A DNA stretch of 64,000 nt from Prevotella sp. (GCA_050875085.1 JBNMLZ010000001.1:44484-108483); one strand, 5' to 3'; shown: positions 9,222-59,252, counted from the stretch's first letter. Notes: generated by a model from the sequence alone, not told the origin. Translations and numbers: made by a program.

Positions 9222-9249
9222 ACGACAAGAATCAGAAGTCACATAAAAT

Positions 9250-15948: not shown

Positions 15949-15950
15949 CC

Positions 15951-16053
15951 GGAACGGCGGACTCCCGTCCGCCGCACTGCACCCTCCCGGAACGGCGGAC
16001 TCCCGTCCGCCGCAAAACCCCCTCAACAGAACGGCGGACTCCCGTCCGCCGCA
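15951..16053 (+). repeat. Three direct copies of palindrome GGAACGGCGGACTCCCGTCCGCCGCA (family D)
   Basis: Copies at 15951, 15989 and 16029; period about 38-39 bp. Confidence 0.9.
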
Positions 16054-16093
16054 AAACCAATCCCCCAACCCTATAAATATAAAGAAAAAGCAA

Positions 16094-22312: not shown

Positions 22313-22345
22313 TTGTATTTTGTTTTTAGTTATTATTTATTATTT

Positions 22346-22460
22346 ATCCGTAGCGGAGGTCTCCGGCCTCCGCAGAAAGCAGATATTGGCAATAACATAA
22401 ATTGACATATTGCCAAGTAAATGATGGTTGCAGCGGAGGCCGGAGACCTCCGCCACGGAT
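22346..22460. repeat. REPIN-like inverted pair, family A (CCGTRGCGGAGGTCTCCGGCCTCCGC)
   Basis: Inverted arms around an AT-rich spacer; abuts the TBDR stop codon. Confidence 0.92.
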
Positions 22461-24766
22461 TAGAATTTTAAGCTTGCTGTGAACTCTACGGTGAACGGAC
22501 GCAGATAAGAGCCGGTCATGAGTTGGTTCTTGATGCCTTTGGCCTCGTCCTTGGTGATGAGTTCGGCTCCGGCGATGCTGCCCTTTGCTCCGGTCTGGTT
22601 GAGGAAGTTGACGACGGTGCAGCCGAGAGCGAGCCGTTTGTTTGCCTGCCAGTTGAGTCCGCCGAATGTTTCCCAGTGGCCGTTGAAGTAGTAAGCCTCG
22701 TTGATGTTGGCGTAGGTCTTCGAGAAGTAGCGGAACGATGTCCACAGTTTCAGTGTCGGAGTAATCATGTAGCTCGGGTCAAGCTCGATGAGTACCTGCG
22801 GAATCTCAGCCACGATGTTGCCAGTGGCATTTATCTTGCCCTCGTAGCCGCTTGAGAACTTCACGCTTGTCTCATACTTCTTATAGGTCGGCTTCTGGTA
22901 TGTGAAGAGGAAGTGGAAGTCGAATCCGCGGAACGGGTGAGCCACCACATCGGTTGTCCATCCCCACGTCTGAATGTCGTAGGTCAGCGGAGCCGCCTTT
23001 ATCTCGCCGTCGTGCTGGAGGTTGAGCGTTGAGTTGTTGTTGGTCTTCGATATGTAGGAGAAGAGCGATGTCAGGCTCAGCCACTTGTTATTGTAGTATA
23101 TTCCGGCACGGCCGAGCGGCACGCTAATCTTGTCGGTGTTTGGCATAGATGCCGGGGCGAAAGTCGAGATGTTAGGGTGCTGCACAATGTAGGTGAAGTC
23201 GCCGGTGAATCCGAACTCATTGGTGAGCTTGTAGGTAAGGGCGGCAGTGAAGTCGTAGTTCACCCAGTTGTATGCCATAGGTGTGGGAGCAATCTTTGTG
23301 CCATCGGGAGCCGTCGTGCCGAGATAGTAGTCGGCAAAGCGTCCTACGAACTCGCCGTTCTGGTTCTTCACGGCAGCGTTCTCACCCTTCAGACGCTGCC
23401 ATTCGAGGCGTGCGCCGTAGTAGGCATTGAGTCGTGGGGTGATGTCCCAGTCGTGGGTGAGGTAGAGGGCGAGTTTGTTCTCGTGGCCCTTGTAGTATTC
23501 CGAGGCGTTCTTGTTGAAGTCGTAGAACACACTCTGTGTCTTGTTCGCGTCCCAGAGGCGCACGGCATACGAGCCGTCCTCAGGCACGCTCTGGTCGTAC
23601 ATGGTTGTATTGGAGCAGTAGTCGATGTGGTAGTACCACTCGTTTACGCCTACGCGCAGTGTTGAAGACTTGAAGCTTTTTGATAGTTCGGATGTGAGCA
23701 ACAGCTCGTTGATGGTTCCGGCGTTGAGGCACGACATGCGGGTCTGTACGTAGCGGCCGTCATATTTTTGAGCCGCACCCATGGCGTCGGTCTGCATATA
23801 GTTGTAAGTTGATGCCGCACCGTCCGCCTTGAGGTCGATGAGCTGCATCGGTGTTTGGTAGACAAATGCTCCGCGTGCGTGGTCGAAGCGCACGGATGTC
23901 TTCCAGTTGAAGCCATTGCCGAAACTGAGGTTGTTGAGGAGCGAGAACTCGGAGGAGCGGTTTTCATCGTAGTCGTAGAGCGAAGTTTGCTTCAATTCGC
24001 CGGTGCGCATGTCGCGGTAGGTGATGTTGGCGTCGATGGGCAGGTAGGAAGTGGTGCCAAGCTTGAACTTGCCGAACTCCTTCACTGAGCCGTCGCCCAC
24101 GTAGATGAACGGTGCCGACTGTGTGGCGTAGTTGTATGCGGGGTGTGAGTTGCTGTACTTGTACATGGCGGTTAGTTCGCCGCGCCCCTCGGCGTAGCGT
24201 TTCGTCAGTGCCGCCTTGTATATCTGTGTGCGGTCCTGGTATTGCGAGGAGCGCAGCTTGAACGTTCCCGGGTCGAAGTCCTGGTAGGCGCTGACACTAT
24301 AGAAGAGGTCTTTGGCGAGAGAACCGTTCATGTTGAGTGAGAACTCCTGCAGGCCGAAGTGGTTGGTCTTGTAGTTGAGGGTGCCTTGGAAGCCCTCATT
24401 GCCGAGCTGCGTACGCGAATTGACCGCATAACCTATGTTGCCAGTGGTAATCGCAGTCTCCGAAATCTTGAGCAGTCCCACGTGCGACAGGCTCGCGTCG
24501 GAGCGCCATGTGGCGTTGACGGGGTGCGGATTGGTGGCATATGTGACGGGCAGGCCGTTCTCAAGAACGTTCACGTCGGCAGATGGAAGTCCTATCTGAA
24601 TCTCGCGCGGACCGTTAGCGCTTGCCGCGTTGAGCATCACGTTGCGGTCGCCCTCCTCCTTGGAATTGGAAGACTTGGCATTGCCATCGTTCTGTGCGTT
24701 GGCTGCAACCGCCATGATAGAGGCGAGAGCCATGGCTGAGAGTTTTGTGTAGCTGTTGGAATACAT
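22460..24766 (-). CDS. TonB-dependent receptor (not SusC type) of the fructan locus
   Basis: Signal ..AANAQ, plug-like N-terminus, beta-barrel pattern, terminal Phe. Start at MYSNS (24766); promoter TAATTTTG at 24870-24877 (-). Confidence 0.8.
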   Translation of the reverse strand: MYSNSYTKLSAMALASIMAVAANAQNDGNAKSSNSKEEGDRNVMLNAASANGPREIQIGLPSADVNVLENGLPVTYATNPHPVNATWRSDASLSHVGLLKISETAITTGNIGYAVNSRTQLGNEGFQGTLNYKTNHFGLQEFSLNMNGSLAKDLFYSVSAYQDFDPGTFKLRSSQYQDRTQIYKAALTKRYAEGRGELTAMYKYSNSHPAYNYATQSAPFIYVGDGSVKEFGKFKLGTTSYLPIDANITYRDMRTGELKQTSLYDYDENRSSEFSLLNNLSFGNGFNWKTSVRFDHARGAFVYQTPMQLIDLKADGAASTYNYMQTDAMGAAQKYDGRYVQTRMSCLNAGTINELLLTSELSKSFKSSTLRVGVNEWYYHIDYCSNTTMYDQSVPEDGSYAVRLWDANKTQSVFYDFNKNASEYYKGHENKLALYLTHDWDITPRLNAYYGARLEWQRLKGENAAVKNQNGEFVGRFADYYLGTTAPDGTKIAPTPMAYNWVNYDFTAALTYKLTNEFGFTGDFTYIVQHPNISTFAPASMPNTDKISVPLGRAGIYYNNKWLSLTSLFSYISKTNNNSTLNLQHDGEIKAAPLTYDIQTWGWTTDVVAHPFRGFDFHFLFTYQKPTYKKYETSVKFSSGYEGKINATGNIVAEIPQVLIELDPSYMITPTLKLWTSFRYFSKTYANINEAYYFNGHWETFGGLNWQANKRLALGCTVVNFLNQTGAKGSIAGAELITKDEAKGIKNQLMTGSYLRPFTVEFTASLKF

Positions 24767-25006
24767 AATGTGTGAGGTTTTGTTTTTTGTTTTTTTCGGT
24801 TTAAGTTGTTGTCGGAATTTCAAACGTTCCCATTTCTTGAATGTTGGCGTCGTTGTTGTTTCGACGCTGCAAAATTAGAAATACGGCAAGGGAATGGAGT
24901 TAACATATCGTTCATATGGAGTAAAAATTGTTGCATGAAACATTTGTCTTATCAGATGAACGAAAAGTGAAACACCAGTAAAGGCTTTGTAAAACTTGAG
25001 TTGATC

Positions 25007-25247: not shown

Positions 25248-26465
25248 ATGAACAACTCCAACTCATCCAATTCAAAGCTAACACTCATCCCCGTGATGGC
25301 GGCATTCTTCACCATGGGATTTGTCGACCTCGTGGGCGCAGTGTCAAACAACATGCAGGAAGACTTCGGGCTTAGCGACTCGGCAGCCAACTTCTTCCCC
25401 TCGCTCGTGTTCTTCTGGTTCCTCATTTTCTCCGTGCCCACGGGCATGTTGATGAACCGCATCGGACGCAAGAAGACAGTGCTCCTTTCTATCATCATCA
25501 CCACACTGGCTGTCTTCCTGCCACTCTTCGACAGTTTCATGCCGTCGCAGCAGAGCCAGCTCTGGCTGATGTACATCTCGTTCTCGCTGCTCGGCATCGG
25601 CAACGCCATCATGCAGACCAGCATCAATCCGCTCGTGACGATGATTGTGAAAGGCCATCTCGCCTCGACACTCACCTTCGGACAATTCGTCAAGGCGATA
25701 GCCTCGTTCATCGCTCCACTCATCGCGGCATGGGGCGCCACGACCACCGCTCCCATACTCGGACTCTCATGGCGCATCCTCTTCCTCCTCTTCTTCATCA
25801 TCGGCATGATTGCCACGCTGTGGCTCGGCATGACCCACATCGAGGAGGAGCCTATCGAAGGCAAGGCGTCAGGCTTCATCGACTGCATCAAGATGCTCGG
25901 CTCACCCATCATCCTACTCTCTTTCCTCGGCATCATGTGTCATGTGGGCATCGACGTGGGCACCAATGCCGTGGCTCCCAAGATTCTCCTTGAGCGCATC
26001 GGCGGCGAGGGCGACACACTCAGCATGTTTGAGTATGCCACGAGCATCTACTTCGCCTTCCGCACACTCGGCTGCTTCACTGGCTCAATTATCATGCGCC
26101 GATTAAACATCCGCGTGTTCTTCACCGTCATAGTATTGATGATGGGTCTCGCAATGGTGGGCTTCGTCTTCGGCACCGAGAAGTGGGAACTCTGGGCAGC
26201 CATCGCTCTCGTGGGCTACGGCAACAGCAACGTGTTCTCCATCGTGCTCTCGCAGGCTCTGCTGTCGGCACCTGAGAAGAAGAACGAGGTCAGCGGACTG
26301 ATGATTATGGGACTCTTCGGCGGCACCGTCTTCCCGCTCGTCATGGGATTCGCAAGCGACGCCGCCAAGACTGCCGGTGCACAGTATCCACAGGTGTGGG
26401 CCGCTGTGGTAATGGCAGTGGGAGTGGGCTATTTGCTGACGTATGTAACAAAGGTGAAACAGTAA
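25248..26465 (+). CDS. MFS sugar (fructose) permease
   Basis: FFTMGFVDLVG, LMNRIGRKKT, about 12 TM segments; promoter TAACTTTG at 25196-25203. Confidence 0.88.
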   Translation: MNNSNSSNSKLTLIPVMAAFFTMGFVDLVGAVSNNMQEDFGLSDSAANFFPSLVFFWFLIFSVPTGMLMNRIGRKKTVLLSIIITTLAVFLPLFDSFMPSQQSQLWLMYISFSLLGIGNAIMQTSINPLVTMIVKGHLASTLTFGQFVKAIASFIAPLIAAWGATTTAPILGLSWRILFLLFFIIGMIATLWLGMTHIEEEPIEGKASGFIDCIKMLGSPIILLSFLGIMCHVGIDVGTNAVAPKILLERIGGEGDTLSMFEYATSIYFAFRTLGCFTGSIIMRRLNIRVFFTVIVLMMGLAMVGFVFGTEKWELWAAIALVGYGNSNVFSIVLSQALLSAPEKKNEVSGLMIMGLFGGTVFPLVMGFASDAAKTAGAQYPQVWAAVVMAVGVGYLLTYVTKVKQ

Positions 26466-26742
26466 GCCCCTCCCCCTCGCCGCCTTTGGCGGCTCTTGCC
26501 CCTCCCCTTAGGGAGGGGAGTGAGATGCTTTTACTGGTGACATTTATGGCATCATATATAGATTTATTTATGGCATCATATATAGATTTATTTAAAACAT
26601 TATACATAGCTTTATTTAAGGCATTGTACATAACAATAATATTTTAACAACCCAATAACAAAAAAAAACACCCATCGCCACACATTACTCCCCTCCCTAA
26701 GGGGAGGGGCAGAGCCGCCAACGGCGGCTGGGGGTGGGGCTT
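26464..26742. repeat. Family B inverted pair enclosing four 24-bp tandem repeats
   Basis: Arms 26464-26522 and 26687-26742; ATTTATGGCATCATATATAGATTT units at 26542-26634. Confidence 0.9.
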
Positions 26743-26748
26743 ATAATT

Positions 26749-27634: not shown

Positions 27635-27861
27635 AACTGGGAGAGGGGGCGCCTCGCCCCGGCATACTTAACTGGGAAAGGAGGCGCCCTCGCCTCCGGC
27701 ATTATAACTGGGAGCGGAGGCGCCTCGCCTCCGGCATTATAACTGGGAGCGGAGGCGCCCTCGCCTCCGGCATCATAACTGGGAGCGGAGGCGCCTCGCC
27801 TCCGGCATGGCAATAATACAATCTTTGCGTGTCGGGGGCGAGGGCGCCCCCTCTCCCAGTT
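27635..27861. repeat. Family C array: five direct 35-36 bp palindromic units plus one inverted unit
   Basis: AACTGGGAGCGGAGGCGCC(C)TCGCCTCCGGC at 27635, 27670, 27706, 27741, 27777; inverted copy 27833-27861. Confidence 0.92.
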
Positions 27862-28016
27862 ATTTTTTACACACTACTCGATTATATTATTGGCTCTTGG
27901 TTGGATAATGCTCAACATTTTTTTGATTTTTGATTTAGATTTGCCAAAATAGCTGTATATTTGTGGCTAATTATAAACCAATTAGGTGTGTCTAAAAGAA
28001 TATCCAGCCAAACCCG

Positions 28017-30773: not shown

Positions 30774-30893
30774 CAATTGGCTTATACAAATACTGCTCTC
30801 TATCTATGTACATAAATAAAAATGCCTTATTTTGTTTTGTAAATTCGTAGTAATCGCGTATCTTTGCATAGTAAACATTCAAAAGCAAAATAT

Positions 30894-31115
30894 ATGAGCT
30901 ACACTAACGACAAAATAAGGCATCTTTTACGCAACACCGGCTTTTGGCATGGGTTCTTCTCTGTATTCAATCCGCTTGGCAACAAGGCTTCCTTGAACAG
31001 AATATGTGATGAAGTCTTGTCACAAGATCCTCGTGACGATTGGTATGCTATTGGCAATAACTTAAAGGTTGCTATGGATAAATTTCAGAAATCATCCTTA
31101 TGGCAGAAGAATTAA
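30894..31115 (+). CDS. Small hypothetical protein, partner of the DUF2335-like gene
   Basis: ATG at 30894 after TTTG-N19-TATCTTTG promoter; DWYAIGNNLKVAM motif; overlaps the next gene by 16 bp. Confidence 0.6.
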   Translation: MSYTNDKIRHLLRNTGFWHGFFSVFNPLGNKASLNRICDEVLSQDPRDDWYAIGNNLKVAMDKFQKSSLWQKN

Positions 31116-31552
31116 ATCAGAACACACCACGTAATGTAAATGCAGACGAGGTAGAAAAAATTCTGGATGAAATGCCGAAGGATAAGCGTCAAGTCCTTTA
31201 AACTGCCATATTATCCGTGCATAGGTCTTTTTATGGCCCTCTCCCCGCACCAGAAGATTTTGCTTCTTACGCAAAAGTAATGCCTACTGCGCCTGAGCGC
31301 ATTGTTGCTTTGGCGGAGAAAGAACAGGATATTCGTGAGAGAACTAATAATCTCGTGATTAAAACGAAAGCAAAAGACAGTATATTAGGACAAGTATTGG
31401 CTTTTCTTTCTGTCATAGCCTGTCTTATTGTGGCTTATCTTTGTGCAGACAAAGGGCATGATGCAGTCGCAGGGGCTATTATCACAAGTGCGACTATACT
31501 TGCATCCATCTTTGCTTTAAAGACGTACCCAAAGAAAATAAGTAAAGAATGA
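31100..31552 (+). pseudogene. DUF2335-like membrane protein interrupted by in-frame TAA at 31199-31201
   Basis: MAEELNQ...KRQVL* continues in the same frame into FYGPLPAPEDFASY..PTAPERIVALAEKEQ and two TM segments. Confidence 0.72.
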
Positions 31553-31576
31553 ATATGTTGTGGGAAACACGGAAAT

Positions 31577-31607
31577 AATAGGGAAATTTAAGACAAATTT
31601 CCCTATT
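31577..31607 (+). terminator. Intrinsic terminator hairpin
   Basis: AATAGGGAAATTT-aagac-AAATTTCCCTATT. Confidence 0.7.
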
Positions 31608-31696
31608 TGTGAGTTTTCTTGAAAATAAAGTATAGTTTTTATTTATACCTTAAGCATTTGTTACTACTTTTGCATTGTAATAATAAACTAAATATT

Positions 31697-31991
31697 ATGA
31701 AACTTTATATATCCGCTGTATTAAAAAAGTATGGCAAGAAACAGCAAGAGGTTGCAGATGCTATTGGTCTTTCTCTTCAAACTGTAAAACAAACGATTTG
31801 CAATACCCCCCTCTTTGTCAACGCTTGAAAAATATGCAAGTGCTGTAAGATGTGATGTCCGGGAGTTTTTCTTTGACCCTAATTCTACGCAGCTACCTTT
31901 TAACAATAATACGAAGCCATAGAAAGTTATTTCTACCTTTATTTCATCAGAAACAGGTAAGAAATATAAGATAGTGGAAATCGAAGACTAA
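31697..31991 (+). pseudogene. Xre/Cro HTH regulator with +1 frameshift (C6 at 31806-31811) and TAG at 31920
   Basis: MKLYISAVLKKYGKKQQEVADAIGLS... continues in another frame as PSLSTLEKYASAVRCDVREFF...P*KVISTFISSETGKKYKIVEIED. Confidence 0.72.
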
Positions 31992-32023
31992 GAAAGAAAA
32001 CCTATAACTAAAAAGTAAAAGAT

Positions 32024-32929
32024 ATGATAGATTTGTTTTCTAAGAAAAAAGGAATTGCATTTTTAATGTTATTTCTTTTAATAACACTGACTTTTTCCTG
32101 CACAAGGGATTCCAATCTAAAGGAATGGACTCCGGTCGGTGATGTAATTTCGTATACAGATACAATATATACAGCAAAAGACAGGTTTGGCAATATCGAG
32201 AAAGACGAATTGCTTTCTGTTCAAAAGCATTTCTTGAACGAACAAAACAAGGACACATTATTAATAAAATATGACAATACTGGCAAAGAAGAAGAACGCA
32301 TAAGATATACTTATGACGATAATGAAAATGTTGTAAAGGAGGTGTCATATTCCAAAGAAGAGACTGTTGACGATTTTGGGGAAAAGTCTGTAAGCGAAAC
32401 TACCAGGACTAAATGCTATACATACAAATTAGATGAAGGTGATATTTCTGAAAGGAAGACTGATTTTTATTATAAAAGGTATTATGATGGAATAGACTCT
32501 TGTGTTATTGACGGTGAGATACCTCATGTACAAACTACAGATTATGACACCGCAAAGATAGCGACTCTTTATAAATATGAAATACCTCAAGAAGTGCCTC
32601 CAGCTCCTAATGACAGCACGGATGTTTGTTATATAACTGATGGTAAAATTTCCATCTACACCAGACGACCAAGGAAATATCGTAATTTTTATTGGCTTTA
32701 TGATGAACCAGATAAAGACTTTACTTACAATACATATAATGAGTATGGGCTTTTAAAAGAGGAGAAATATAGGGAACTTGAAAACAAAGGTTTTTATTAT
32801 AGAAGTTATTATGAGTATGAGTATGATGCAAATAGAAATCCAGTAAAAATAAAGATTTATTATAATACTGATACCGATAGAGATAAAAAGCCTTACCAAC
32901 TATGGATAAGGCATTATGAATATAAATAA
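32024..32929 (+). CDS. Low-GC Tyr-rich lipoprotein with YD-like repeats
   Basis: Lipobox TFSC; YTYDDNENV, YNEYGLL, YEYDANRNP. Confidence 0.75.
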   Translation: MIDLFSKKKGIAFLMLFLLITLTFSCTRDSNLKEWTPVGDVISYTDTIYTAKDRFGNIEKDELLSVQKHFLNEQNKDTLLIKYDNTGKEEERIRYTYDDNENVVKEVSYSKEETVDDFGEKSVSETTRTKCYTYKLDEGDISERKTDFYYKRYYDGIDSCVIDGEIPHVQTTDYDTAKIATLYKYEIPQEVPPAPNDSTDVCYITDGKISIYTRRPRKYRNFYWLYDEPDKDFTYNTYNEYGLLKEEKYRELENKGFYYRSYYEYEYDANRNPVKIKIYYNTDTDRDKKPYQLWIRHYEYK

Positions 32930-32954
32930 ACACCTGTTTCGCCCCTACTCTATT

Positions 32955-32993
32955 AGGCTTGAAAGCGTGAATTTTTATCACGTTTTCAAGCCT
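32955..32993. terminator. Intrinsic terminator hairpin
   Basis: AGGCTTGAAAGCGTGA...TCACGTTTTCAAGCCT followed by a T-rich tail. Confidence 0.7.
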
Positions 32994-33088
32994 TTGTTTT
33001 TCTCTTATATCCATCTTTGTAGCTAACTCATTAATTTTTTCAACTTTATTATTGAGTCAAAGTTTTGACACAGCCGCCACGGATGAGA

Positions 33089-35521
33089 TTATTTAGCTAT
33101 GATGTCAATTGTTTTCTTCAGTCCACGCTTGCTGTCGGTGATGGTGAGCGTGGCTTTTCCTTTCTTGCCGTTGCTCTGCACCACAACCACGAGCTGACCG
33201 CTGAACAGCTTCATTTCCGGATTGGTGAACGGTTGGAGCGAGGTGGCGTCGCCGTTGCAGGTGGCGCGGAACGTGGCGGCTCCCGATACGGCAAACGTTA
33301 GGTCGTCGTCCACGGTTGGGCAGAACGTGCCGTTCTTGTCCTGGGTTGAGACGGTGATGAAGGCGAGGTCGTTGCCGTCGGCTGTTATCTCCTTGCGGTC
33401 AGCCTCAACCACGAGAGCCACGGGGTCGGATGCGGTGCGCACTGTCTCGGTGGCTACCGCCTTGCCGTCGTAGTCGTAAGCCACAACCTTCAGTTCACCC
33501 GGCTCATACTTCACGTTGTTCCAGCGTAGGCGGTAGCGGTCGAGTCGCGTGTTGGGATTCTTGATGATGCGTCCCTGGCTCTTGCCGTTTACGAACAGCT
33601 CGGCGCTGGGATAGTTGGTGTAGCAATACACGGGGGTCACCTCGCCCTCGCGTCCAGGGAATGTCCAGTGGGGCAGAAGGTGAAGGGTTGGCGAGTCCTT
33701 GCGCCAGTGCGAGCGGTAGAGCCAGTAGCGGTCTTTGGGCAGTCCGGCAAGGTCGCAGATGCCGAAGTAGCTTGAGCGCGACGGCCAGTACTCGTCGTAG
33801 GGCGTAGGCTCACCGAGGTAGTCGTAGCCAGTCCACACGAACTCGCCGATGGTGTAGTCGCGGTCGTCCTGCATCTGCCAGTCGTCGTCGGGCAGGTTGC
33901 TCCACGAGCAATACTCCACGTCGTACGAGGAGCATTGTCCGTCGGCATATACCTTGGAGTCGCTTGGCTCAACGGGGAACTTGTATACTCCGCGTGAGGA
34001 AACAGTCGATGCCGTCTCTGAACCAAGCAGGAAACCTTGCGGAAGCTGACGTATGTTGTTGTCGTACTTATGCACGCGGTAGTTGAAGCCCGGCACGTCC
34101 ATCACCTGGGCGAAACCCGACTTCAGAGCGTCCTCGGCGCGGTCCATTCCCTGGGTCACGGGGCGTGTGGGGTCAAGGCGGTGGCAGATGTCCTGCAGGT
34201 GCTTGGCGATGTCGCGACCCTCGGTGCTCCACTGTTCCGGAATCTCGTTGCCAATGCTCCACATCACGATAGACGGATGGTTGCGGTGGTTGCGCACGAG
34301 GTTCTCTATGTCCTTGTCGCTCCACTCCTTGAAGTCCTTTGCATAGCCGTTCTTGCATTTTGGGTAAATCCACATGTCGAAGCTCTCCGCCATGACCATC
34401 ATGCCCATCGAGTCGCACACCTCCATCTGCCATGTCGACGGCATGTTGTGCGCCGTGCGTATGGCGTCGCATCCCATCTCCTTCATCGTGCGTATCTGTC
34501 GGATAAGGGCAGCCTTGTTGATGGCAGCACCCAACGGACCGAGGTCGTGGTGCAGGCAAACGCCTTTAATCTTTCTTGAAACGCCATTCAACTGAAAGCC
34601 GTCATACTGCGACACCTTTACGGTGCGTATGCCCACCTTCTGCTGCGTCTCGTCGATGAGTTTGTTGTTGCGGTAGAGACGCGTGACGAGCTTGTATAGA
34701 TAAGGTGACTCGGGCGACCACAGCTGCGGGTTGTCAATGGAGAGTTTTTTGATGGCATTGAAATCCGCGTCGAAGTCGCCGTAGCGGTATTGCGCCACAA
34801 CATTGCCATTGCTGTCGACGAGGCGGTTCTCGATGGAGAGAGTCTTGTCCACGTTGTTCACGTTGGTGCAGATGCTTATCTCCGCCTTGCCGTCGGCTAT
34901 CGACTCTGTGCGGAAATAGCTGCCCCACGGATTAATGGTGGCAACATCGGCATTGGTTACGAGCTGCACGGGGCGGTAGAGACCGCCGCCCGGATACCAG
35001 CGCGAACTCTCCTCGCGGTTGTTGAGGCTCACTGAAATCTCGTTCTGTCCCTTCTTCAGATAAGGCGCGGCGTCAACGCGGAAGGCGTTGTAGCCATACG
35101 CCCAGTGTCCGGCAAGATGACCGTTGACATACACGTGTGGGTCTGCCATGGCGCCGTCGAACTCCAGAATGGCAGTCTTCGGCAATTTGGTTATGTTGAC
35201 CGTGGTCTTATAGAAGCCGCGTCCAATCCAAGGCAGCGCGCCCGAGCGTCCCGACTTCTCCGACTTCTCGGTCTCGCCGTTCTGCTCGATGGCAACATAC
35301 TGCAAGTCCCATTTCTTGTCGAATGGTCCGCTGATGGCCCAGTCGTGGGGAATGACTACAGACTGGTAGTTAAGACTGTCGCGCGAGAACTGCCACTGCT
35401 TGAGGTTGATGGTCTGGCGCTGGGCGGAGGCGGGAAGGAAGAAGAGCCCTACCCCCAGTCCGCACAGCGTGCGGACTATTCCCCTCCCCGGTAGGGAGGG
35501 GAGTAATATGTGGTGTTTCAT
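33089..35521 (-). CDS. GH2 beta-galactosidase
   Basis: PHDWAI, SRWYPGGGLYR, GVCLHHDLG, NHPSIVMWSIGNE, GSET, WTGYDYLGEP. Alternative start at 35527. Confidence 0.93.
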   Translation of the reverse strand: MKHHILLPSLPGRGIVRTLCGLGVGLFFLPASAQRQTINLKQWQFSRDSLNYQSVVIPHDWAISGPFDKKWDLQYVAIEQNGETEKSEKSGRSGALPWIGRGFYKTTVNITKLPKTAILEFDGAMADPHVYVNGHLAGHWAYGYNAFRVDAAPYLKKGQNEISVSLNNREESSRWYPGGGLYRPVQLVTNADVATINPWGSYFRTESIADGKAEISICTNVNNVDKTLSIENRLVDSNGNVVAQYRYGDFDADFNAIKKLSIDNPQLWSPESPYLYKLVTRLYRNNKLIDETQQKVGIRTVKVSQYDGFQLNGVSRKIKGVCLHHDLGPLGAAINKAALIRQIRTMKEMGCDAIRTAHNMPSTWQMEVCDSMGMMVMAESFDMWIYPKCKNGYAKDFKEWSDKDIENLVRNHRNHPSIVMWSIGNEIPEQWSTEGRDIAKHLQDICHRLDPTRPVTQGMDRAEDALKSGFAQVMDVPGFNYRVHKYDNNIRQLPQGFLLGSETASTVSSRGVYKFPVEPSDSKVYADGQCSSYDVEYCSWSNLPDDDWQMQDDRDYTIGEFVWTGYDYLGEPTPYDEYWPSRSSYFGICDLAGLPKDRYWLYRSHWRKDSPTLHLLPHWTFPGREGEVTPVYCYTNYPSAELFVNGKSQGRIIKNPNTRLDRYRLRWNNVKYEPGELKVVAYDYDGKAVATETVRTASDPVALVVEADRKEITADGNDLAFITVSTQDKNGTFCPTVDDDLTFAVSGAATFRATCNGDATSLQPFTNPEMKLFSGQLVVVVQSNGKKGKATLTITDSKRGLKKTIDIIAK
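35445..35505. repeat. Family B arm inside the GH2 signal peptide
   Basis: AGCCCTACCCCCAGTCCGCACAGCGTGCGGACTATTCCCCTCCCCGGTAGGGAGGGGAGT. Confidence 0.85.
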
Positions 35522-35530
35522 ATACATAAT

Positions 35531-35619
35531 ATCCGTGGCGGAGGTCTCCGGCCTCCGCAGTAAGCAAAATCCGTTGTTATAATTGGGTGCAGCGGAGGCC
35601 GGAGACCTCCGCCACGGAT
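35531..35619. repeat. REPIN-like inverted pair, family A
   Basis: Same arms as 22346 and 25007. Confidence 0.92.
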
Positions 35620-35664
35620 GGGGATGTCGTTAGGAAATGAATCCTTTGCTGGGGATCTCTATTT

Positions 35665-35695
35665 GCCGGGGGCGAGGGCGCCCCCGCTCCCAGTT
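35665..35695 (-). repeat. Single family C unit overlapping the GH53 stop codon
   Basis: GCCGGGGGCGAGGGCGCCCCCGCTCCCAGTT. Confidence 0.85.
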
Positions 35696-36830
35696 ATAGG
35701 GCTTCGCTAAAGCATTTCATTGCCTTCGTCACCTTTCCGGTATGGTTGTTGAACAGTCCGCGGTTTATCCAGCTTCCAATCACTTTCTTTCCGCTTTCGT
35801 TCTCTTCGGGGAACCACCAGTAGAGTCCTTTCACCCGTGGGTGACGCTTGAGCATGGTCACGAGTTCGGTGGTGAACTGCGCCTGACCGTCCTCCGATAT
35901 CGGGTAGAGGTCGGAATATTCATCGGCTGACTTCGCCCAGCGGTCGTTGTCGTGCGAATAGTAGAATGCTGTCTCGACAATCATGATGTCCTTCTTCGGA
36001 AAGTCGACGGCGAGAGAGTCGAGCGTGCGCGAGAGGTTGGGGATGTCCTTGTGCCACATGGGATAGTAGGACAGGCCGATGATGTCGTAGTCGACGCCAT
36101 GGGCGGCGAGTCGGCTGTAATAATTCTTCGTGGCGTCCCAGTCGCCGGCGTGCTCGGTGTGGATGATGACGCGCGCCTCGGGGCACACCTCACGGCACGC
36201 GCGCACGCCACTCTTGATGAGGTCGGTCAGCACGTCCCAGCCTTCTTCCTTCATCGGGTCAACCTTTGCCGTGGGCCACAACATGCCGAACGTTATTTCG
36301 TTGCCCACCTGTATGAGGTCGGGCGCGCAGCCATTGGCTTTCAGATGGCGCAAGGCGCGGGCTGTGTGGGCATACACCGAGTCGCAGAGCTGTGCCGGTG
36401 AGCATTTCGCCCAAGCCTTTGGAGTGAACTGCTTGCCGGGGTCTGCCCATGTGTCGGAGTAGTGGAAGTCGAGCATTAGGTTCATGCCTGCCTTCTTTAT
36501 CTGCTTGCATAGAGGCGTGATGTAGCCCAAATCCTGGCATACGCCCTCGTCCTTGTTCTCGCCGGGCGCGTCCTCGGGATTTACAAAGAGACGCACGCGG
36601 GCGGCATTCCAGTTGTTAGCCTTGGCGATGTCGAGGAAGGGGCGAGCCTTGCCACGCTCGTCGAGATACTTGGTGCCACGCTGCTCGTAGGTGGGCAGGA
36701 GGGAGATGTCGCCACCGAGGAGAGATACTTGGGCGGAAGAGGACAGGGAGAAGAGCCCTACCCCCAGTCCGCACAGCGTGCGGACTATTCCCCTACCCAA
36801 GAGGAAGGGGAGTGACATGTGATGTTTCAT
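35694..36830 (-). CDS. GH53 endo-beta-1,4-galactanase
   Basis: GGDISLL, RVRLFVNP, DFHYSDTWADPGKQ, QVGNE, GLSYYP, IVET. Confidence 0.92.
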   Translation of the reverse strand: MKHHMSLPFLLGRGIVRTLCGLGVGLFSLSSSAQVSLLGGDISLLPTYEQRGTKYLDERGKARPFLDIAKANNWNAARVRLFVNPEDAPGENKDEGVCQDLGYITPLCKQIKKAGMNLMLDFHYSDTWADPGKQFTPKAWAKCSPAQLCDSVYAHTARALRHLKANGCAPDLIQVGNEITFGMLWPTAKVDPMKEEGWDVLTDLIKSGVRACREVCPEARVIIHTEHAGDWDATKNYYSRLAAHGVDYDIIGLSYYPMWHKDIPNLSRTLDSLAVDFPKKDIMIVETAFYYSHDNDRWAKSADEYSDLYPISEDGQAQFTTELVTMLKRHPRVKGLYWWFPEENESGKKVIGSWINRGLFNNHTGKVTKAMKCFSEAL

Positions 36831-36972
36831 ACGCTTATTGTTTACACTCTTGGTTGTTGGGTATAATATATTTCCTACAGATTGCTTATATATGTTTTAT
36901 GCAACTTATTACATTTCACTCCCCTCCCCTTTCGGGGAGGGGAAAGCCGCTTTAGCGGCTGGGGGAGAGGCT
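36754..36972. repeat. Family B inverted pair; left arm in one GH53 signal peptide, right arm in the other GH53 C-terminus
   Basis: Arms 36754-36815 and 36917-36972. Confidence 0.88.
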
Positions 36973-38010
36973 ATTGAGCGCTGCGGTCGGTTTCCCGTTT
37001 GCGTCGAACGCGCCCATGCTGTAGCCGTTCCAACCGCCGTAGCACTCCGGCTCCCAGTAGAAGATGCCCAGACACTCCGCCTTAGCCTTGCATCCGTCAA
37101 CCATCTTCTTCATCATGGCTTCGGCATTGTCAGAGTCCCACGACATGCCAATCTCGCAAATCATGACCTTCGTGTTGTAGCGTGAGGCGAGTGTTGAGAT
37201 GTTGTTGAGGCAGTTGTCGGTGGCGGTCTGCCAGTTGTCGTCGTCGGGATAGAGCGACATGCCTATGACGTCCCACTTGGCGCCGTGCGACTTCAGTCCG
37301 TCGAACAGCCATGTGTAGTGGCCGAGGTCGTCGCCCTTGTCGAGGTGGATGATGCACTGCGCGTCGGGGTAAACCGACTTGGCGGCTTCATATCCAGCGT
37401 TGTTGAGCGCCACGTAGTTGTCGATGTTGTTCAGATTGCTGCCCGACACAAGGCCGAGCGGCCACAGTATGCCCGTGTTCGACTCGTTGCCTATCTGCAC
37501 CCACTCCACGTCGATGCCGTTCTGCTTGAGATATGTCAGCACGTCCTTGGTGTGGTCAGCCACGGCAGCCTTCATCTTCGTGAGGTCGTCCTTGAAGTCG
37601 GTCCAGCTTGCGGGGATGTTCTGCTTGCCGGGGTCAGCCCATGAATCGGAGTAGTGGAAGTCGATCATGATGCGCTGACCGAGACTCTTGGCGCGGAACG
37701 CCTTGGCGAGCACGTCCTGCTTGCCGCACCAGCCACCGGCAGGATTCACCCACACGCGCAGACGGATGGCATTTACGCCGAGGTCGCGCAGGAGTGTCAT
37801 GCAGTCCTGCTCGGAACCGTTGGCATTATAGAACTTCTTGCCGCTGGCTTCCATTTCGGTGAGCCAGCTTACGTCGGCACCCTTGGCAAAGCCAGTCATG
37901 TCGTAGGTGGGTTCCTGCTGTGGGGTTGTGTTGTCGTCGTCGCTGCAAGCTGAGAGTGAGAAGAGAGCGAGGGCAGCTATGAGAAGGGGTTTGATGATAT
38001 TTTTTTTCAT
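36952..38010 (-). CDS. GH53 endo-beta-1,4-galactanase, surface lipoprotein
   Basis: Lipobox LSAC, KGADVSW, RLRVWVNP, DFHYSDSWADPGKQ, QIGNE, YWEP. Start at 38010. Confidence 0.92.
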   Translation of the reverse strand: MKKNIIKPLLIAALALFSLSACSDDDNTTPQQEPTYDMTGFAKGADVSWLTEMEASGKKFYNANGSEQDCMTLLRDLGVNAIRLRVWVNPAGGWCGKQDVLAKAFRAKSLGQRIMIDFHYSDSWADPGKQNIPASWTDFKDDLTKMKAAVADHTKDVLTYLKQNGIDVEWVQIGNESNTGILWPLGLVSGSNLNNIDNYVALNNAGYEAAKSVYPDAQCIIHLDKGDDLGHYTWLFDGLKSHGAKWDVIGMSLYPDDDNWQTATDNCLNNISTLASRYNTKVMICEIGMSWDSDNAEAMMKKMVDGCKAKAECLGIFYWEPECYGGWNGYSMGAFDANGKPTAALNSLSPSR

Positions 38011-38020
38011 AATGATAAGA

Positions 38021-38245
38021 AGCCCCACCCCCAGCCGCGGAGCGGCTTTCCCCTCCCCTTAGGGAGGGGAGTGATGTGTGGAGGTGGATTGGGTTTATTG
38101 GTTTAAGTTAATGTTTTCTTATTGTAAAATTAAAATGTGTATATAGGTGTAACAATTTTATGCCTTTATCATATGCAATCTACACATATTACTCCCCTCC
38201 CTAAGGGGAGGGGAAGCCGCGCTACCGCGCGGCGGGGGAGGGGCT
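38021..38245. repeat. Family B inverted pair
   Basis: Arms 38021-38074 and 38191-38245; the right arm overlaps the SusE-like C-terminus. Confidence 0.9.
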
Positions 38246-39634
38246 GTACCCCCATTTCTTCGTCTTCAAATCCACTGTCACCGTGACGGTTTCTCCCGCT
38301 TTCGCACCGTCGTCGAACCAGATGTTCCATGCTCCGACATCGGCGGAGAGTGTGAAGATGTCGCTCGGGTCGGAACCGTAGATGATGGAATTCTCGCGGT
38401 CGGCAATACGGAAGTTCTCCCAGTCGGCGGTGAGCGTGTAGGTGCCGCTGTAGGTGGTGTCGCCTGTCTTGGCGAGGCGTGCAAGTTCCACGGACACGTC
38501 GTCCTTGCTCACCATGAACAGCTCGGCAGGATATTTCGTCTCGGGCTCGTCGGTGGCGTTGAAGTCAACCTTGCCTTCAACGACAGAGTAGTTCAAGTAG
38601 CCACTGCCGTCAGCCTCGACGATGATGGTGTAGGTGCCAGCCTTGGCGATGGTGATGCCCGTTGAGGCTGATGCCTGGGTCAGATGTCCGTTGGCTGCGG
38701 CGAAGAGCAGCGTCTTGTCGTTGGCGTAGTCGGTGCGTGTGGTGGTGTTGTACTCCTTGGCGTCAGCGTCGATGGCGACGGTCTGGTTGTCAGCGGTGGT
38801 GGTGATGTAGTAGCCCCACTGCTGTCGCTTTGAGTAGTAGGTCATGTCGTTGCCGTTAGCCTTGAGCTGCGCGAGCAGCGTGGCGCTCCACTCCAGTTGC
38901 TTTGTGTCCACCTTGACGTACCATGCTCCGGCACCGTCGGCAAACCAGCAGTTCCATGCGTCGGCAGAGTTGGATATGTCGAAGGCGTGGCCGTCGATGG
39001 CGGCGTTGCCCCATGTGTCGCCCGAGTATTCGTAGAACCAGCAGTTGAGCCATGCCGTGGCATTCATGTAGCCGGTGTATACACCGTCGGCTTCGGGCGA
39101 GTGTAGGTAGGCAATAGTGTCGGTCTTGTTGGAGGCGAGCACGGCGAGCTTGGTCATGTCGACGAAATAGGGCTTCACGCTCACGGCGCACACGTTGCTG
39201 TACTGCGGCTCCATGTTGTCGCCAGCCTTGGTCTTGATGCGGAAGTAGATTTTGCCTTCGGTGTTGACGTTGATGCCGAGGGTCTGGGCGAGCGTGTTAA
39301 GCTCTGTTCCGGTGTAGGCTTTTGAGAGCGTTGAGGCTGCCGACTCGGTGGCGCTGGCGAAATTCTCGGATGCAGAAGCCTCAACATAGGTCTTCAGCAT
39401 GTTGTCGGGTACGGGACTGTTCTCGTCGCTCGACAGGAGCGTGGGGTTCTTCCATGCCAGTTCAAGCACCACGGTGGCGCGCTGGCTGATGTCGAGGTCT
39501 ACCTTCGACGCGGTGGCGATGAGGTCGGACGGTGCCATGCCGTCAACGTATACTGTGTCGCCGTCGTTGTTGCAGCTTGCGCATAGAACGGCAAGACAAA
39601 GATACAGAAATATTTGGCTTAAAAGCTTTTTCAT
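38222..39634 (-). CDS. SusE-like surface glycan-binding lipoprotein
   Basis: Lipobox CASC, ELNTLAQTLG..GKIYFRI..YSN SusE N-domain, Trp-rich modules; lies downstream of susD. Confidence 0.8.
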   Translation of the reverse strand: MKKLLSQIFLYLCLAVLCASCNNDGDTVYVDGMAPSDLIATASKVDLDISQRATVVLELAWKNPTLLSSDENSPVPDNMLKTYVEASASENFASATESAASTLSKAYTGTELNTLAQTLGINVNTEGKIYFRIKTKAGDNMEPQYSNVCAVSVKPYFVDMTKLAVLASNKTDTIAYLHSPEADGVYTGYMNATAWLNCWFYEYSGDTWGNAAIDGHAFDISNSADAWNCWFADGAGAWYVKVDTKQLEWSATLLAQLKANGNDMTYYSKRQQWGYYITTTADNQTVAIDADAKEYNTTTRTDYANDKTLLFAAANGHLTQASASTGITIAKAGTYTIIVEADGSGYLNYSVVEGKVDFNATDEPETKYPAELFMVSKDDVSVELARLAKTGDTTYSGTYTLTADWENFRIADRENSIIYGSDPSDIFTLSADVGAWNIWFDDGAKAGETVTVTVDLKTKKWGYSPSPAAR

Positions 39635-39676: not shown

Positions 39677-39891
39677 ACTGGGAGCGGGGGCGCCCTCGCC
39701 CCCGAAGAAATATATTAAAGACCGGAGGCGAGGGCGCCTTCTATCCCAGGTAAAGAGCGGGGGCGAGGGCGCCTCCTATCCCAGGTAAAGACCGGGGGCG
39801 AGGGTGCCTTCTATCCCAGGTAAAGACTGGAGGCGAGGGCGCCCCCTATCCCAGGTAAAGGTCGGGGGCGAGGGCGCCCCCGCTCCCAGTT
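39677..39891. repeat. Family C array: one unit plus five inverted 35-bp tandem units
   Basis: 39677-39704, then CGGGGGCGAGGGCGCC..CTATCCCAGGTAAAGA x5 ending on the susD stop codon. Confidence 0.92.
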
Positions 39892-41464
39892 AGTATCCCT
39901 CGTTCTTGAGGTTCGGGTTTGCTGTGAGGTCGGTTGACGGTATTGGGTAGATGTTGTACTTGTTGTCGACAGCCATGCCGTCCTTGGTGCCGCCCTTCCA
40001 TTCCCATATATAGGAAGATGTGGTGAACTCACCAAAGCGTATGAGGTCGGTGCGGCGGTAGCCCTCCATGTAGAGCTCGCGTGCGCGCTCGTCGATGATG
40101 AACTCCTTCGTGAGCTGGCTTTCCTTGATGTTGCCGCTATCGTCGCCGTAGGCACGCTTGCGCAGGTCGTTGATGTAGGCTACAGCCTGGGCGCGCGAGC
40201 CCCCCTCACCGCCGCGAACCACAGCCTCGGCATACATCAGATATACATCGGCAAGGCGGAAGAGCGGGAAGTCGGTGGCTGCTCCGTAGGATGCAGTGTT
40301 GGAAGCTGTCTCGCCGTTGTCCTTCAGATTAGTCCACTTGGTGAATAGATAGCCGTCCTGCTGGTTGGTGAAGTCATCGATATACTGGTTCTGTCCGTCG
40401 GTGAAGAACATGAAGCGGTGGTCCTTGGCAGGGTCGGTGAACTTTGCCGTGAGATTGCCGCGTGAGCGGAAGTTGCCCCAAGGCGACTCCACGCCGATGG
40501 AGTGGCTGTCCTCAGACTTCGATGTGCTGCTTGCGGAACCGCAGATAAGATATGTGGTTGAGCCGTAGGTGATGAGATGCTCGGGATCCTGCGGCAGGGC
40601 GAAGATAATCTCGTTGGTGCGCTTGTCGTTGTCGGCGTTGAAGAGCTGGGCGTAGTCGGCGTTGAGCGTGTAGCCCTCGCTGATGGCGCTGTTGCAAGCC
40701 TTTATGCATTCGGTGTAGTGTGGTGTGCCGGTGTACACCTCGCTGTTGAGGTAGAGCTTGGCGAGCAGCGTGTAGGCGGCGCCGCGCGATGCCTCGCCAT
40801 AAGGACAGTCGGCTTTCGGGGCGAGGTCGGCCACGCAGTCGTTAAGCTCCGACTCTATGAACTCGAAGGTCTGCTGCGGTGTGTAGCGCGGCGGAACGTA
40901 GGAGCCGATGGGGTCGTTCTCGCTGACGAACGGGATGTTGCGGAACAGGTCGAGCGCATGATAATAGAACAGCGCGCGCATGAAACGCGCCTCTGCCTTG
41001 TAGCGGCGCAGCTTCTGCTGGTCGGCGTCGGAGAACGACGAGAGCTTTGAGTCGGAGCAGTTGCGCAGGAACTCGTTGCAGAGCGTGATGTTGTAGTAGA
41101 TGCGGTAGTACATGTCGGACACCCATGTGTCGGTGGCGTCCCACTTCATGAACGACACGTTGCTCAGGTCGTCGCCCGTGAGCCATGTGTAAGCCATCTC
41201 GTCGGTGGGCGCTTCCTGGAGGTTGAGATAGGTGCGCATGTAGTTCTCGCCGTGGTTGGAGGCGTAGTCAACACCCGACGACTCCTGTCCGGTGGCGGTC
41301 ATCGATGCATAAATCTTGCCGAGCACCGACTCATAGTTTTGCAGGGATGTATACACCTGCTCGGATGTTGTCTCGGTATGTGGGTATTGGTTGAGGTCGT
41401 CGGTGCACGCGGTGTTGAGCGTCAGGGCGGTGGCGACGAGGCAACCGAGGAAATATTTGTTCAT
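39890..41464 (-). CDS. susD: SusD/RagB glycan-binding lipoprotein
   Basis: Lipobox NTAC, AEARFMRALFY, FRLADVYLMYAEA, ERARELYMEGYRRTDLIRF, YPIP..NPNL. Confidence 0.95.
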   Translation of the reverse strand: MNKYFLGCLVATALTLNTACTDDLNQYPHTETTSEQVYTSLQNYESVLGKIYASMTATGQESSGVDYASNHGENYMRTYLNLQEAPTDEMAYTWLTGDDLSNVSFMKWDATDTWVSDMYYRIYYNITLCNEFLRNCSDSKLSSFSDADQQKLRRYKAEARFMRALFYYHALDLFRNIPFVSENDPIGSYVPPRYTPQQTFEFIESELNDCVADLAPKADCPYGEASRGAAYTLLAKLYLNSEVYTGTPHYTECIKACNSAISEGYTLNADYAQLFNADNDKRTNEIIFALPQDPEHLITYGSTTYLICGSASSTSKSEDSHSIGVESPWGNFRSRGNLTAKFTDPAKDHRFMFFTDGQNQYIDDFTNQQDGYLFTKWTNLKDNGETASNTASYGAATDFPLFRLADVYLMYAEAVVRGGEGGSRAQAVAYINDLRKRAYGDDSGNIKESQLTKEFIIDERARELYMEGYRRTDLIRFGEFTTSSYIWEWKGGTKDGMAVDNKYNIYPIPSTDLTANPNLKNEGY

Positions 41465-53149: not shown

Positions 53150-55216
53150 TTACTTCACTACAACTTTCTTGCCATTCACGACATAAATGCCCTTGGCTAC
53201 GCCTTGCAATGCCTCCTGCATGGAAACGGCTGTCGCGAAACGGCGCACTGTCCTGCCGTCGAGCGAGACGACGGTTGTAGGAACAGCCGACTGAATGCCG
53301 CCGGCAACCACACCTGCAATGGCTGTGGGCTGCTCACTGGTGACATCCTTCACGAGATAATGTCCCTGGTCGTCGGTTTCAGGCTGGATTTCAAAGTAAG
53401 AAGTGGCTGTGACACCGCTCACGTTGACAGTCTGCACACCATCCTTCTCGGCAAACACGAAGTTCACGTAGTCGGTAGGAGTGTTGATGTTGAATGTCTT
53501 GGCATACCACTGCTTGCCGTTCTGCGTGGTTGCGGTCGTCACGTTGTCGCCCGGCCACTTAGTGTTTGACGGCTTATGGCTGTCATCACCGCCCCATGTC
53601 CAGAAGTAGGCATTGTTCCAGCCCACCTTTTCTGTATTAACATACACCGACATCGTGTAAGGCTTGAAGCTCTTCACCTCGTAGACGCGGGTCTGCACGC
53701 CACTCACGCTGCCACCTGCAAGCACTCCAACTTTAAGCGTGGTATTGCCGTAAGGGATGGTTATAGCGCCACCATTTGCAACCTTGGCGCTCCCGGCAGT
53801 AGGCTCAGTGCCATCGAGAGTATACACAAGCTGTGCTCCGGAATTGGCAGACACGGCACGCAACGTAACCGACGGCTCGTTGTAGTAGACACCCGACGGC
53901 AGCGACGGCCATGCCGTCTCCTGCGAGGTCTCGATAAAGTAGCGCCAGTGGTAGCCCTCGGCAGCGAGAGCGTAGCCCGACGGGGCGTTGTACTTGTTGG
54001 CTGTTGTGCCCACGGCGGCAAGCAGCTTGCCATTGGTGCCCGTTGAGGTGAACACGAAACGGCCGGTCGTGCTCTCCTCACGCTTGTAGGCACTCTGGTT
54101 GTTGATGCCGACGAGGTTGCGCAAGAGAATCATCTGTTTGATGTCCTGTTTGCAGTCAATCCAATGCTTGTAGAACACGCACGGCGTGCCTGGCATACCG
54201 AGTATGTAGGCGTTGGCGGCGAGGGTGTCCTTGCGTAGCGGGTCCTGCTCGGAGCCTTCGCGCTTCTCGGTGTCGTGGTTCTCAACGAAAGTCACGGCAT
54301 AGCGCTTGTAGGTGTTGTTGGTTGCCAATCCACCGTCGGAGAGTTTTGCCCAATTGCCGTTGTTGGCGGCGTCGCGCACGGTGTAGCGTATGGTGAAGTC
54401 GAATGTGGCAGACTGTATCTTGCCGTCCACCTTGGTAGCCTGCAACCACTCCATGAGAACCGACTTGTTGCCATCCCAATACTCGCCTACAGAGAACTCA
54501 GGCTTGGCATCGGCATTGTACATGCCGGTGAACTTGCCGGCATAGCCCTTCGTCATGTCGTAGCGGAATCCGGCATAGCCAAAATCGTTGAGGAGCATGT
54601 GGAGATAGTCCTTGACCGTGTTCTGCACGTTGGCGGAGTTGTGGTCGAGGTCGCGCATACCGCTCCAGTCCTCACCCGTGTCCTCATTGGCACTGAGGCT
54701 CACACCCTGTTGCTTGGCAGCGGCAGCGGCCTTGCCACCGTCGTCATTGGCGCACACGTCGGCAGCGGTCATGGTGTAGGTCTTGCCATTATAGGTCTCT
54801 ACGGGGAAGTCGAACCAGTCCTTTATGGTACCGCGGTGGTTAATCACCACGTCGGCAATCGTGCCTATGCCTTTCTGCTTGAAAGTGTTAATCATCGAAC
54901 GGAGCTGCTGCTCAGAGCCGAACGACGAGTTGTAGTTGCTGAACCAGTAGAGGTCGTTGTAGCCCATCGACTTGCCGCCGCACGACGCGCTCTGCGGAAT
55001 CCACACGAGCTTGAAGTACGGTGCAAACTCATCTGCCTGTGCCTCAAGCTTTGTCCATGCAGAGGCATCATAGCTGTCCCAGTAGAAACCCTGGAGCATC
55101 ACACCCTGATATTTCTCCGGCCAACCTTGGGCTGAAGCGGGCAGGGCAAGAAGCCCTAACCCAAGTCCGCACAATGAGCGGGCTATAGTTTTATTGAATA
55201 TACGATTTGGTTTCAT
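53150..55216 (-). CDS. GH13 alpha-amylase with starch-binding module and T9SS-like CTD
   Basis: MLQGFYWD, DVVINH, GFRYDMTKG, VGEYWD, FVENHD; C-terminal KGIYVVNGKKVVVK. Confidence 0.9.
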   Translation of the reverse strand: MKPNRIFNKTIARSLCGLGLGLLALPASAQGWPEKYQGVMLQGFYWDSYDASAWTKLEAQADEFAPYFKLVWIPQSASCGGKSMGYNDLYWFSNYNSSFGSEQQLRSMINTFKQKGIGTIADVVINHRGTIKDWFDFPVETYNGKTYTMTAADVCANDDGGKAAAAAKQQGVSLSANEDTGEDWSGMRDLDHNSANVQNTVKDYLHMLLNDFGYAGFRYDMTKGYAGKFTGMYNADAKPEFSVGEYWDGNKSVLMEWLQATKVDGKIQSATFDFTIRYTVRDAANNGNWAKLSDGGLATNNTYKRYAVTFVENHDTEKREGSEQDPLRKDTLAANAYILGMPGTPCVFYKHWIDCKQDIKQMILLRNLVGINNQSAYKREESTTGRFVFTSTGTNGKLLAAVGTTANKYNAPSGYALAAEGYHWRYFIETSQETAWPSLPSGVYYNEPSVTLRAVSANSGAQLVYTLDGTEPTAGSAKVANGGAITIPYGNTTLKVGVLAGGSVSGVQTRVYEVKSFKPYTMSVYVNTEKVGWNNAYFWTWGGDDSHKPSNTKWPGDNVTTATTQNGKQWYAKTFNINTPTDYVNFVFAEKDGVQTVNVSGVTATSYFEIQPETDDQGHYLVKDVTSEQPTAIAGVVAGGIQSAVPTTVVSLDGRTVRRFATAVSMQEALQGVAKGIYVVNGKKVVVK

Positions 55217-57200: not shown

Positions 57201-57312
57201 ATTTTCTCTTATTTTTTATATTATTCCCGTTCCCCCATACCCCACAAAGCATATTACTCACCTCCCTAAGGGGAGGGGAAAGCCGCCTTTGTCGGCGAGG
57301 GGGAGGGGCCTT
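57126..57312. repeat. Family B inverted pair; left arm encodes the SusA signal peptide
   Basis: Arms 57126-57182 and 57255-57312; susA ATG (57200) lies in the spacer. Confidence 0.9.
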
Positions 57313-59234: not shown

Positions 59235-59252
59235 ATATAAAAAAAGAAGAAG

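Follow-up and report, generated by a model that had tools for sequence, protein, structure and literature searches.

The same start in two unrelated genes

The question raised by this locus is how two neighboring genes for unrelated enzymes came to begin with nearly the same stretch of DNA. The locus lies in a 64,000-nt stretch of Prevotella sp. DNA (GCA_050875085.1, JBNMLZ010000001.1:44484-108483), here called the window, in whose coordinates positions are given; the genome is a draft metagenome-assembled genome, 65% complete and comprising 149 contigs, for which genome-wide gene calls were our own rough ones (1587 genes). The two genes, both on the minus strand, encode an enzyme of Pfam family GH2 (33089 to 35521, with an alternative ATG two codons upstream at 35527) and a GH53 enzyme, termed GH53a (35694 to 36830; PF07745). 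Together with a second GH53 gene upstream of GH53a (GH53b; 36952 to 38028, minus strand), they lie within one SusC/SusD locus, for which the GH53 family and the SusC/SusD context suggest galactan as the substrate. The answer that we regard as probable is that both genes begin with an in-frame copy of a hairpin repeat that acts as a likely export signal, and that GH53a acquired its copy by gene conversion from the start of GH2.

Both open reading frames (ORFs) and both predicted signal peptides, first proposed in a sequence-only reading of the window, were confirmed. When the GH2 cassette (35420 to 35521) and the GH53a cassette (36729 to 36830), both on the minus strand, were aligned from the ATG to the codon for the Q that follows the 33-residue signal, 88 of 102 nucleotides were identical (BLASTN E value of 9e-30 within the genome), and the likeness ended at these two points, with 12 of 40 positions matching upstream and 13 of 48 downstream. 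Along the cassette, identity amounts to 28/36 before, 46/46 within, and 14/20 after an exact run, which occupies 35440 to 35485 and 36749 to 36794 (minus strand); the identity reported in the sequence-only reading is thus real, but the run measures 46 nt and not 44. It contains the hairpin noted there (35457 to 35477 and 36766 to 36786), with a perfect 9-bp stem in both cassettes. Among 4438 pairs of family copies located on different contigs, just 6 have an exact run of at least 41 nt in common. The carriers themselves are not homologous, as had been claimed: they belong to different Pfam families, and their mature parts are dissimilar (best BLASTP E value of 0.57).

Each cassette contains one arm of the repeat, scoring 54.0 and 45.8 bits against a genome-wide family profile, which bears out the proposed repeat origin. 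The arm in GH2 (35439 to 35515, minus strand) belongs to a subtype with a long second hairpin and stands without a partner arm. In GH53a (36750 to 36824, minus strand), the first hairpin is broken by two changes at one pair, and the second is perfect. This arm forms an outward-facing inverted pair with a partner at 36908 to 36976 (plus strand), whose reverse strand supplies the last codons and the stop of GH53b; the AT-rich spacer between them (36825 to 36907) holds the GH53a ATG, as the sequence-only reading had it, and bears no resemblance to the orthologous intergenic DNA of a sister locus, L194.

A hairpin repeat family directed at gene edges

The profile was built from copies within the genome, and nonoverlapping matches at E < 0.02 were counted as copies. 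This yielded 100 copies, compared with a single match at the same cutoff in the reversed genome. An arm combines a hairpin of a C-run and a G-run with a second, variable hairpin and a tail rich in G, and in all 99 copies with a neighboring gene the tail is directed at the gene edge: 23 copies lie just before a start, 21 are fused N-terminally, 6 are ambiguous, and 49 lie at the 3' end of a gene on the opposite strand. The 38 close pairs are without exception outward-facing, and 37 lie between codirectional genes, although only 67% of junctions are codirectional (P = 4e-6). Their spacers, 30 to 538 nt long, are unrelated to one another, except for two that hold DUF559 genes (see below) and two short patches. 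The repeat does not appear to supply its own ATG, since no fixed upstream ATG was present in the 71 nonfused copies (at most 4 at any one distance). None of the nine Rfam matches in window positions 26000 to 60000 reached the gathering score, and all were generic hairpin matches.

The 21 fused and 6 ambiguous copies place an in-frame repeat in unrelated proteins. The long second hairpin is found in six copies, all inside predicted signals, with no noncoding copy detected; in five of the six the stem is still intact although both of its sides have changed. The module is therefore shared by GH2 and GH53a, as proposed, but is not private to them, with these six coding copies and at least 15 likely exported carriers. 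Separately, N-terminal arms, mostly in a TPL frame, were seen in cytoplasmic proteins on contigs C5, C20, C35, C36, C53, C72, and C101 of this genome (G000), namely, an amino acid kinase, Sir2, a RecQ-like protein, dCMP deaminase, GNAT, an ABC ATPase, and an aminotransferase. In an acetyl xylan esterase gene (L103; G000:C94:2660-2762), a second short repeat is nested in frame in the first hairpin of the arm, giving a predicted signal of 50 residues.

The repeat start of GH53a is derived and resembles that of GH2

Comparison with orthologues indicates that the GH53a signal is derived. A repeat signal was found in none of 21 readable GH53a starts from 29 loci of the genus and in none of 60 readable frames from 80 metagenome loci. 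Between the partner arm at the end of GH53b and the beginning of mature GH53a, nothing aligns with L194, and the junction therefore appears to have been overwritten. For two other carriers, a neopullulanase-type enzyme and an acetyl xylan esterase, 90%-identity cluster mates have ordinary signals at the place of the repeat, which argues that the repeat replaced an older signal. Coding copies also seem to turn over, because at the corresponding site of P0066, which clusters with a GH26-like lipoprotein, another variant of the hairpin is read in the same frame. A repeat-derived signal in another frame, variously eroded but still in frame, is present in 13 of the 15 members listed (P0089 to P0102) of a 93-member cluster containing the GH2 of G000:C98. 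By eye, the signal of an S41 protease in another genome (L129, G103) resembles an eroded short-type arm, which may reflect an independent capture at that gene. A profile of ten signal peptides searched against 1.84 billion representatives gave one uninformative match; as its 41 positions are too short, that search says nothing about the spread of repeat signals.

The entire GH53a-GH2 junction, with two other repeat families in it, is common to this genome and the sister locus L194, as are the GH2 start and a PASAQ end. The GH53a signal of L194, however, is ordinary. GH2 is therefore the likely donor and GH53a the likely recipient. Specifically, of the first 21 nt of GH53a, 16 agree with the GH2 start of L193 and 15 with that of L194, but only 12 and 11 with the sister GH53a starts; a score of 15/21 is reached by only 1 of 1006 called starts in the genome. 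By these counts, the start of GH53a looks like a GH2 start. The two copies are, moreover, mutually closest among 96, sharing an exact run of 45 versus at most 25 and at most 15 with any other copy, so that copying or gene conversion of a start-plus-signal module, as suggested in the sequence-only reading, is the best account of the data. Its claim that the copying was recent holds for the 46-nt tract, which looks recent, but not for the flanking parts of the cassette, which have diverged by 20 to 30%; the identity profile along the cassette (28/36, 46/46, 14/20) fits an older copy overlaid by a recent conversion tract.

The strongest competing explanation, which we consider unlikely though by no means negligible, holds that GH2 and GH53a each acquired the repeat on their own, from a subtype that was formerly active, with selection freezing coding copies while noncoding ones turned over, so that nothing passed from GH2 to GH53a. 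The subtype does occur at six unlinked or distant coding sites with no noncoding copy found, and GH53a has a partner arm of its own. The cleavage regions also fit: the idea of one cleavage region common to all subtype members was rejected, as GH2 and an S41 protease among these members have native ones. The same GH2 was in addition captured separately in the lineage L195-L197, and 4 of 79 GH2 loci were flagged, L194 included; L197, with its repeat-derived GH2 start, belongs to the cultured Leyella stercorea An906. Trees of mature GH2 and GH53, midpoint-rooted and with several open forks, support two points only; in them the nearest GH2 relative is P0106, and the L197-type capture is separate. 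Against independent capture, the exact second hairpin and the 46-nt run are found only in these two adjacent copies, the other four of the subtype being different; pairs this close on one strand make up just 14 of 4560, and the start of GH53a resembles an inherited GH2 start.

The repeat as a predicted export signal

In both genes the repeat likely provides the charged segment and the hydrophobic segment of a Sec export signal. The predicted signals comprise 33 residues each, with an n-region net charge of +3, and their cleavage sites, ASA and SSA followed by Q, coincide with the AQ of the orthologues. An A-x-A site followed by Q is the pattern of the Bacteroidetes Q-rule, as given in the available part of its description (PMC5837995). 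No in-frame ATG, GTG, or TTG occurs after codon 11 within the first 60 codons of either gene; with the old signal gone as well, no other signal is available.

Across the genome, at least 15 likely exported proteins, as judged by prediction, carry the repeat, mostly in one reading frame. Among the labeled start-fused carriers, 15 of 24 are likely exported, compared with a crude base rate of 256/1480 (P = 0.001 at an assumed 30%). The first hairpin is read as LPS in 12 of 14 exported but 2 of 9 nonexported carriers (P = 0.007), and LPS plus the GVGL frame is found in 11 of 14 versus 1 of 9 (P = 0.003 with three ambiguous carriers left out and 0.001 with them included). The tail frame alone is not significantly different (13 of 15 versus 5 of 9; P = 0.15).

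A further explanation, which we judge improbable, is that the cell tolerates the repeat as an intruder or is slightly harmed by it, with translation starting elsewhere or export being poor and the signals being an effect of annotation. Indeed, Di Nocera et al. warn, in the part of their article available, that most N-terminal repetitive extragenic palindromic (REP) sequences may reflect wrongly annotated starts (PMC3733652); the h-regions contain much glycine and are weaker, and a nearby alternative ATG exists in 6 of 27 start-fused copies. These points are opposed by the lack of any later in-frame start, by intact frames with 86 to 89% identity to orthologues in both genes, by the frame bias and the enrichment among exported proteins, and by the persistence of eroded in-frame versions in the 93-member GH2 cluster. 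Finally, an assembly error producing the duplicated cassette is highly implausible: although the genome is an incomplete draft and contigs built from short reads are interrupted at the 46-mer common to both cassettes, the two copies are not identical, with 14 differences in 102 sites, sequencing runs from two studies (one of these runs being perhaps the source sample) yielded contigs that tile both cassettes with zero differences, a single 663-nt contig covering 36300 to 36960 includes the whole GH53a cassette, the 46-mer forms a separate contig at about twice the depth of its flanks, and a second deposit (P0105) contains an identical GH2.

DUF559 genes between repeat arms

Both DUF559 genes of this genome (G000:C8:33450-34133, loci L061 and L159, and G000:C38:4164-4777, locus L158) lie between outward-facing arms and occupy the two longest pair spacers. 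The same holds for two of two DUF559 genes in sister genomes, at another locus. DUF559 occurs in 84 of 201 genomes of the genus; among the best 30 loci, both arms were present in 9 and at least one arm within 400 nt in 12, whereas any profile match was found in only 1 of 29 and 2 of 29 control loci. The arm-DUF559-arm arrangement was found at many different loci, including L156, L157, and L163 to L192, and resembles a REPtron with a non-HUH nuclease; DUF559 presumably adopts a Vsr-like PD-(D/E)XK fold. At L172, L174, L180, and L185, DUF559 is inserted in frame inside long proteins with repeat-like peptides on both sides; from their motifs, we take the hosts to be leucyl-tRNA synthetase, an ABC-F ATPase, and a helicase.

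A REP-associated tyrosine transposase (RAYT) as the mobilizer was considered but is unsupported. The family repeat was found at none of three Y1_Tnp loci of this 65%-complete genome; instead, the three RAYT-like Y1 transposase genes (L160, L161, and L162) are each flanked by a different repeat family of their own, two of which have more than 100 pattern matches each in the genome. One copy of the family lies about 1.5 kb from the Y1 gene on C53, just beyond that locus. The family behaves like a REP/REPIN (REP doublets forming hairpins), but as neither a flanking RAYT nor the internal conservation typical of miniature inverted-repeat transposable elements (MITEs) was found, it was filed under neither REP/REPIN nor MITE. 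Terminal inverted repeats, as in MITEs, are present in the form of arm pairs, but conserved internal sequence and size were not found, the spacers being mostly unlike; a GTAG, as in the GTAG/CGTC foot of REPs, was seen by eye only in the variable tail of some copies.

These observations can be joined into a sequence of events. A DUF559 nuclease cassette would settle at codirectional gene junctions, leave arms behind, and later lose its gene, the junction including the gene ends being overwritten. In exported proteins, selection would keep the LPS..R..LGVGL frame ahead of an A-x-A site followed by Q, and the shared arms would allow one coding copy to be converted by another. At the present locus, the GH2 start and cleavage region would predate the split from the sister species; GH53a would then have gained an arm pair, its inner arm would have taken over the GH2 start, and the 46-nt tract would have been homogenized last. 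Only tentatively do we extend this to a general proposal, i.e., that DUF559 and its hairpin arms constitute a mobile element, so far undescribed, that generates REP-like repeats with no HUH transposase and overwrites codirectional junctions; its arms would form a genome-wide pool of start-plus-signal modules, interchangeable among unrelated exported proteins and passed on by gene conversion.

Several points weigh against the main account. The start motif of GH53a may derive from the 5' flank of the repeat itself, as other fused copies begin alike; the family profile fails to detect the eroded GH2 signals of L193 and L194 as repeats; and neighboring family copies are in general slightly more alike (P = 0.04). 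The best 11-residue hydropathy values of the two signals, 2.39 and 2.06, are below the 2.75 to 2.83 of GH53 orthologues, the cores being glycine-rich, and both starts fold strongly as RNA (z scores of -3.7 and -2.7), which could lower translation. The labels exported and nonexported were assigned manually on the basis of Pfam families and orthologues. DUF559 is a candidate mover of the repeat by association, and 18 of the best 30 DUF559 loci have no profile match near the gene; at 11 stand-alone DUF559 loci without a profile match, related hairpins were seen by eye on at least one side.

Other features of the window

Further family copies are spread over the window. GH53b has an ordinary lipoprotein-type signal, and its ATG lies 4 nt after another repeat arm; an outward-facing pair occupies the next gene junction (38015 to 38247). 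An eroded third long-hairpin copy (55126 to 55186, minus strand) lies in the predicted signal of a GH13 alpha-amylase. In a pair at 57121 to 57316, the inner arm (57121 to 57190) forms the predicted signal of the GH13 neopullulanase-type enzyme, and noncoding pairs are present at 26458 to 26748 and 59248 to 59513. Y1-linked repeats of other families were located at 15949 to 16063, 22345 to 22458, 27635 to 27863, 35530 to 35697, and 39681 to 39893. The fourth of these stretches includes an inverted pair of the Y1 transposase-linked D7/D9 family (35530 to 35617), which lies immediately upstream of the GH2 ATG and is also present in L194, and an arm of the D3 family (35655 to 35697), linked to another Y1 transposase, that overlaps the stop codon of GH53a.

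Apart from the repeats, the region 30864 to 33014 contains, between a hybrid sensor and GH2, short genes with no apparent relation to the flanking sugar loci. An Mfa2-family fimbrial gene is followed by an ORF of 1583 residues that matches no Pfam family (10523 to 15274 and 8142 to 10509), and a 787-residue ORF, likewise lacking a Pfam match, lies beside a GH32 gene in a fructan-type locus (22460 to 24823). One window protein has a 90%-identity cluster mate that carries the name Leyella stercorea, in keeping with an organism of the Prevotella group.

Relation to known systems

The case bears on the origin of new bacterial signal peptides, as here the source DNA, the states before and after, and a likely transfer from gene to gene are visible, in the setting of carbohydrate-degrading enzymes of an abundant gut group. 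It flags DUF559 as a candidate mobilizer of a widespread repeat family, and for annotation it suggests that odd N termini of Prevotella proteins may be real starts. A literature search covering main texts, with few subscription journals included, found nothing on this repeat, on repeat-derived Prevotella signals, or on repeat-flanked DUF559, nor any description of signal transfer between unrelated genes or of this scale.

Palindromic elements of Rickettsia were reportedly described by Ogata in 2000. According to the available text of PMC3184786, these elements and MITE-ORF fusions likewise place an in-frame repeat inside or at the end of unrelated proteins; they are, however, insertions or extensions, whereas the Prevotella repeat replaces the old signal and junction and would assume a required targeting role. 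REPs and REPINs with their RAYT (TnpA-REP), i.e., REPtrons, are also similar as far as the accessible portions of two articles extend (PMC3733652, PMC6006769): they share the many short GC-rich hairpins, the inverted pairs, a repeat-flanked nuclease gene, and intragenic copies at protein ends. Unlike in REPtrons, the Prevotella repeat flanks DUF559 and not an HUH Y1 enzyme, and while REPtrons are described in those portions as not moving as a unit, the arm-DUF559-arm unit was found at many loci (PMC3733652, PMC6006769).

A survey of Enterobacterales reports whole signal peptides gained and lost among orthologues and, in the part of the text available, tested transposable elements as a cause with IS finder and found none (PMC5952966); the small-repeat route proposed for Prevotella would escape IS finder. 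For a repeat as part of a signal peptide, the literature, to the extent that it was accessible, offers one precedent, the enterobacterial repeat unit RU-2 in the predicted signal peptide of YPO1552 of Yersinia pestis (Delihas 2007, PMC2759123). As presented in the accessible part of that article, RU-2 concerns one gene of unknown function and prediction only, whereas the Prevotella repeat is carried by no fewer than 15 proteins that belong to known families and are likely exported; beyond RU-2, it offers sister-level states before and after the change, a bias in reading frame, and evidence that it passed from one gene to an unrelated one.

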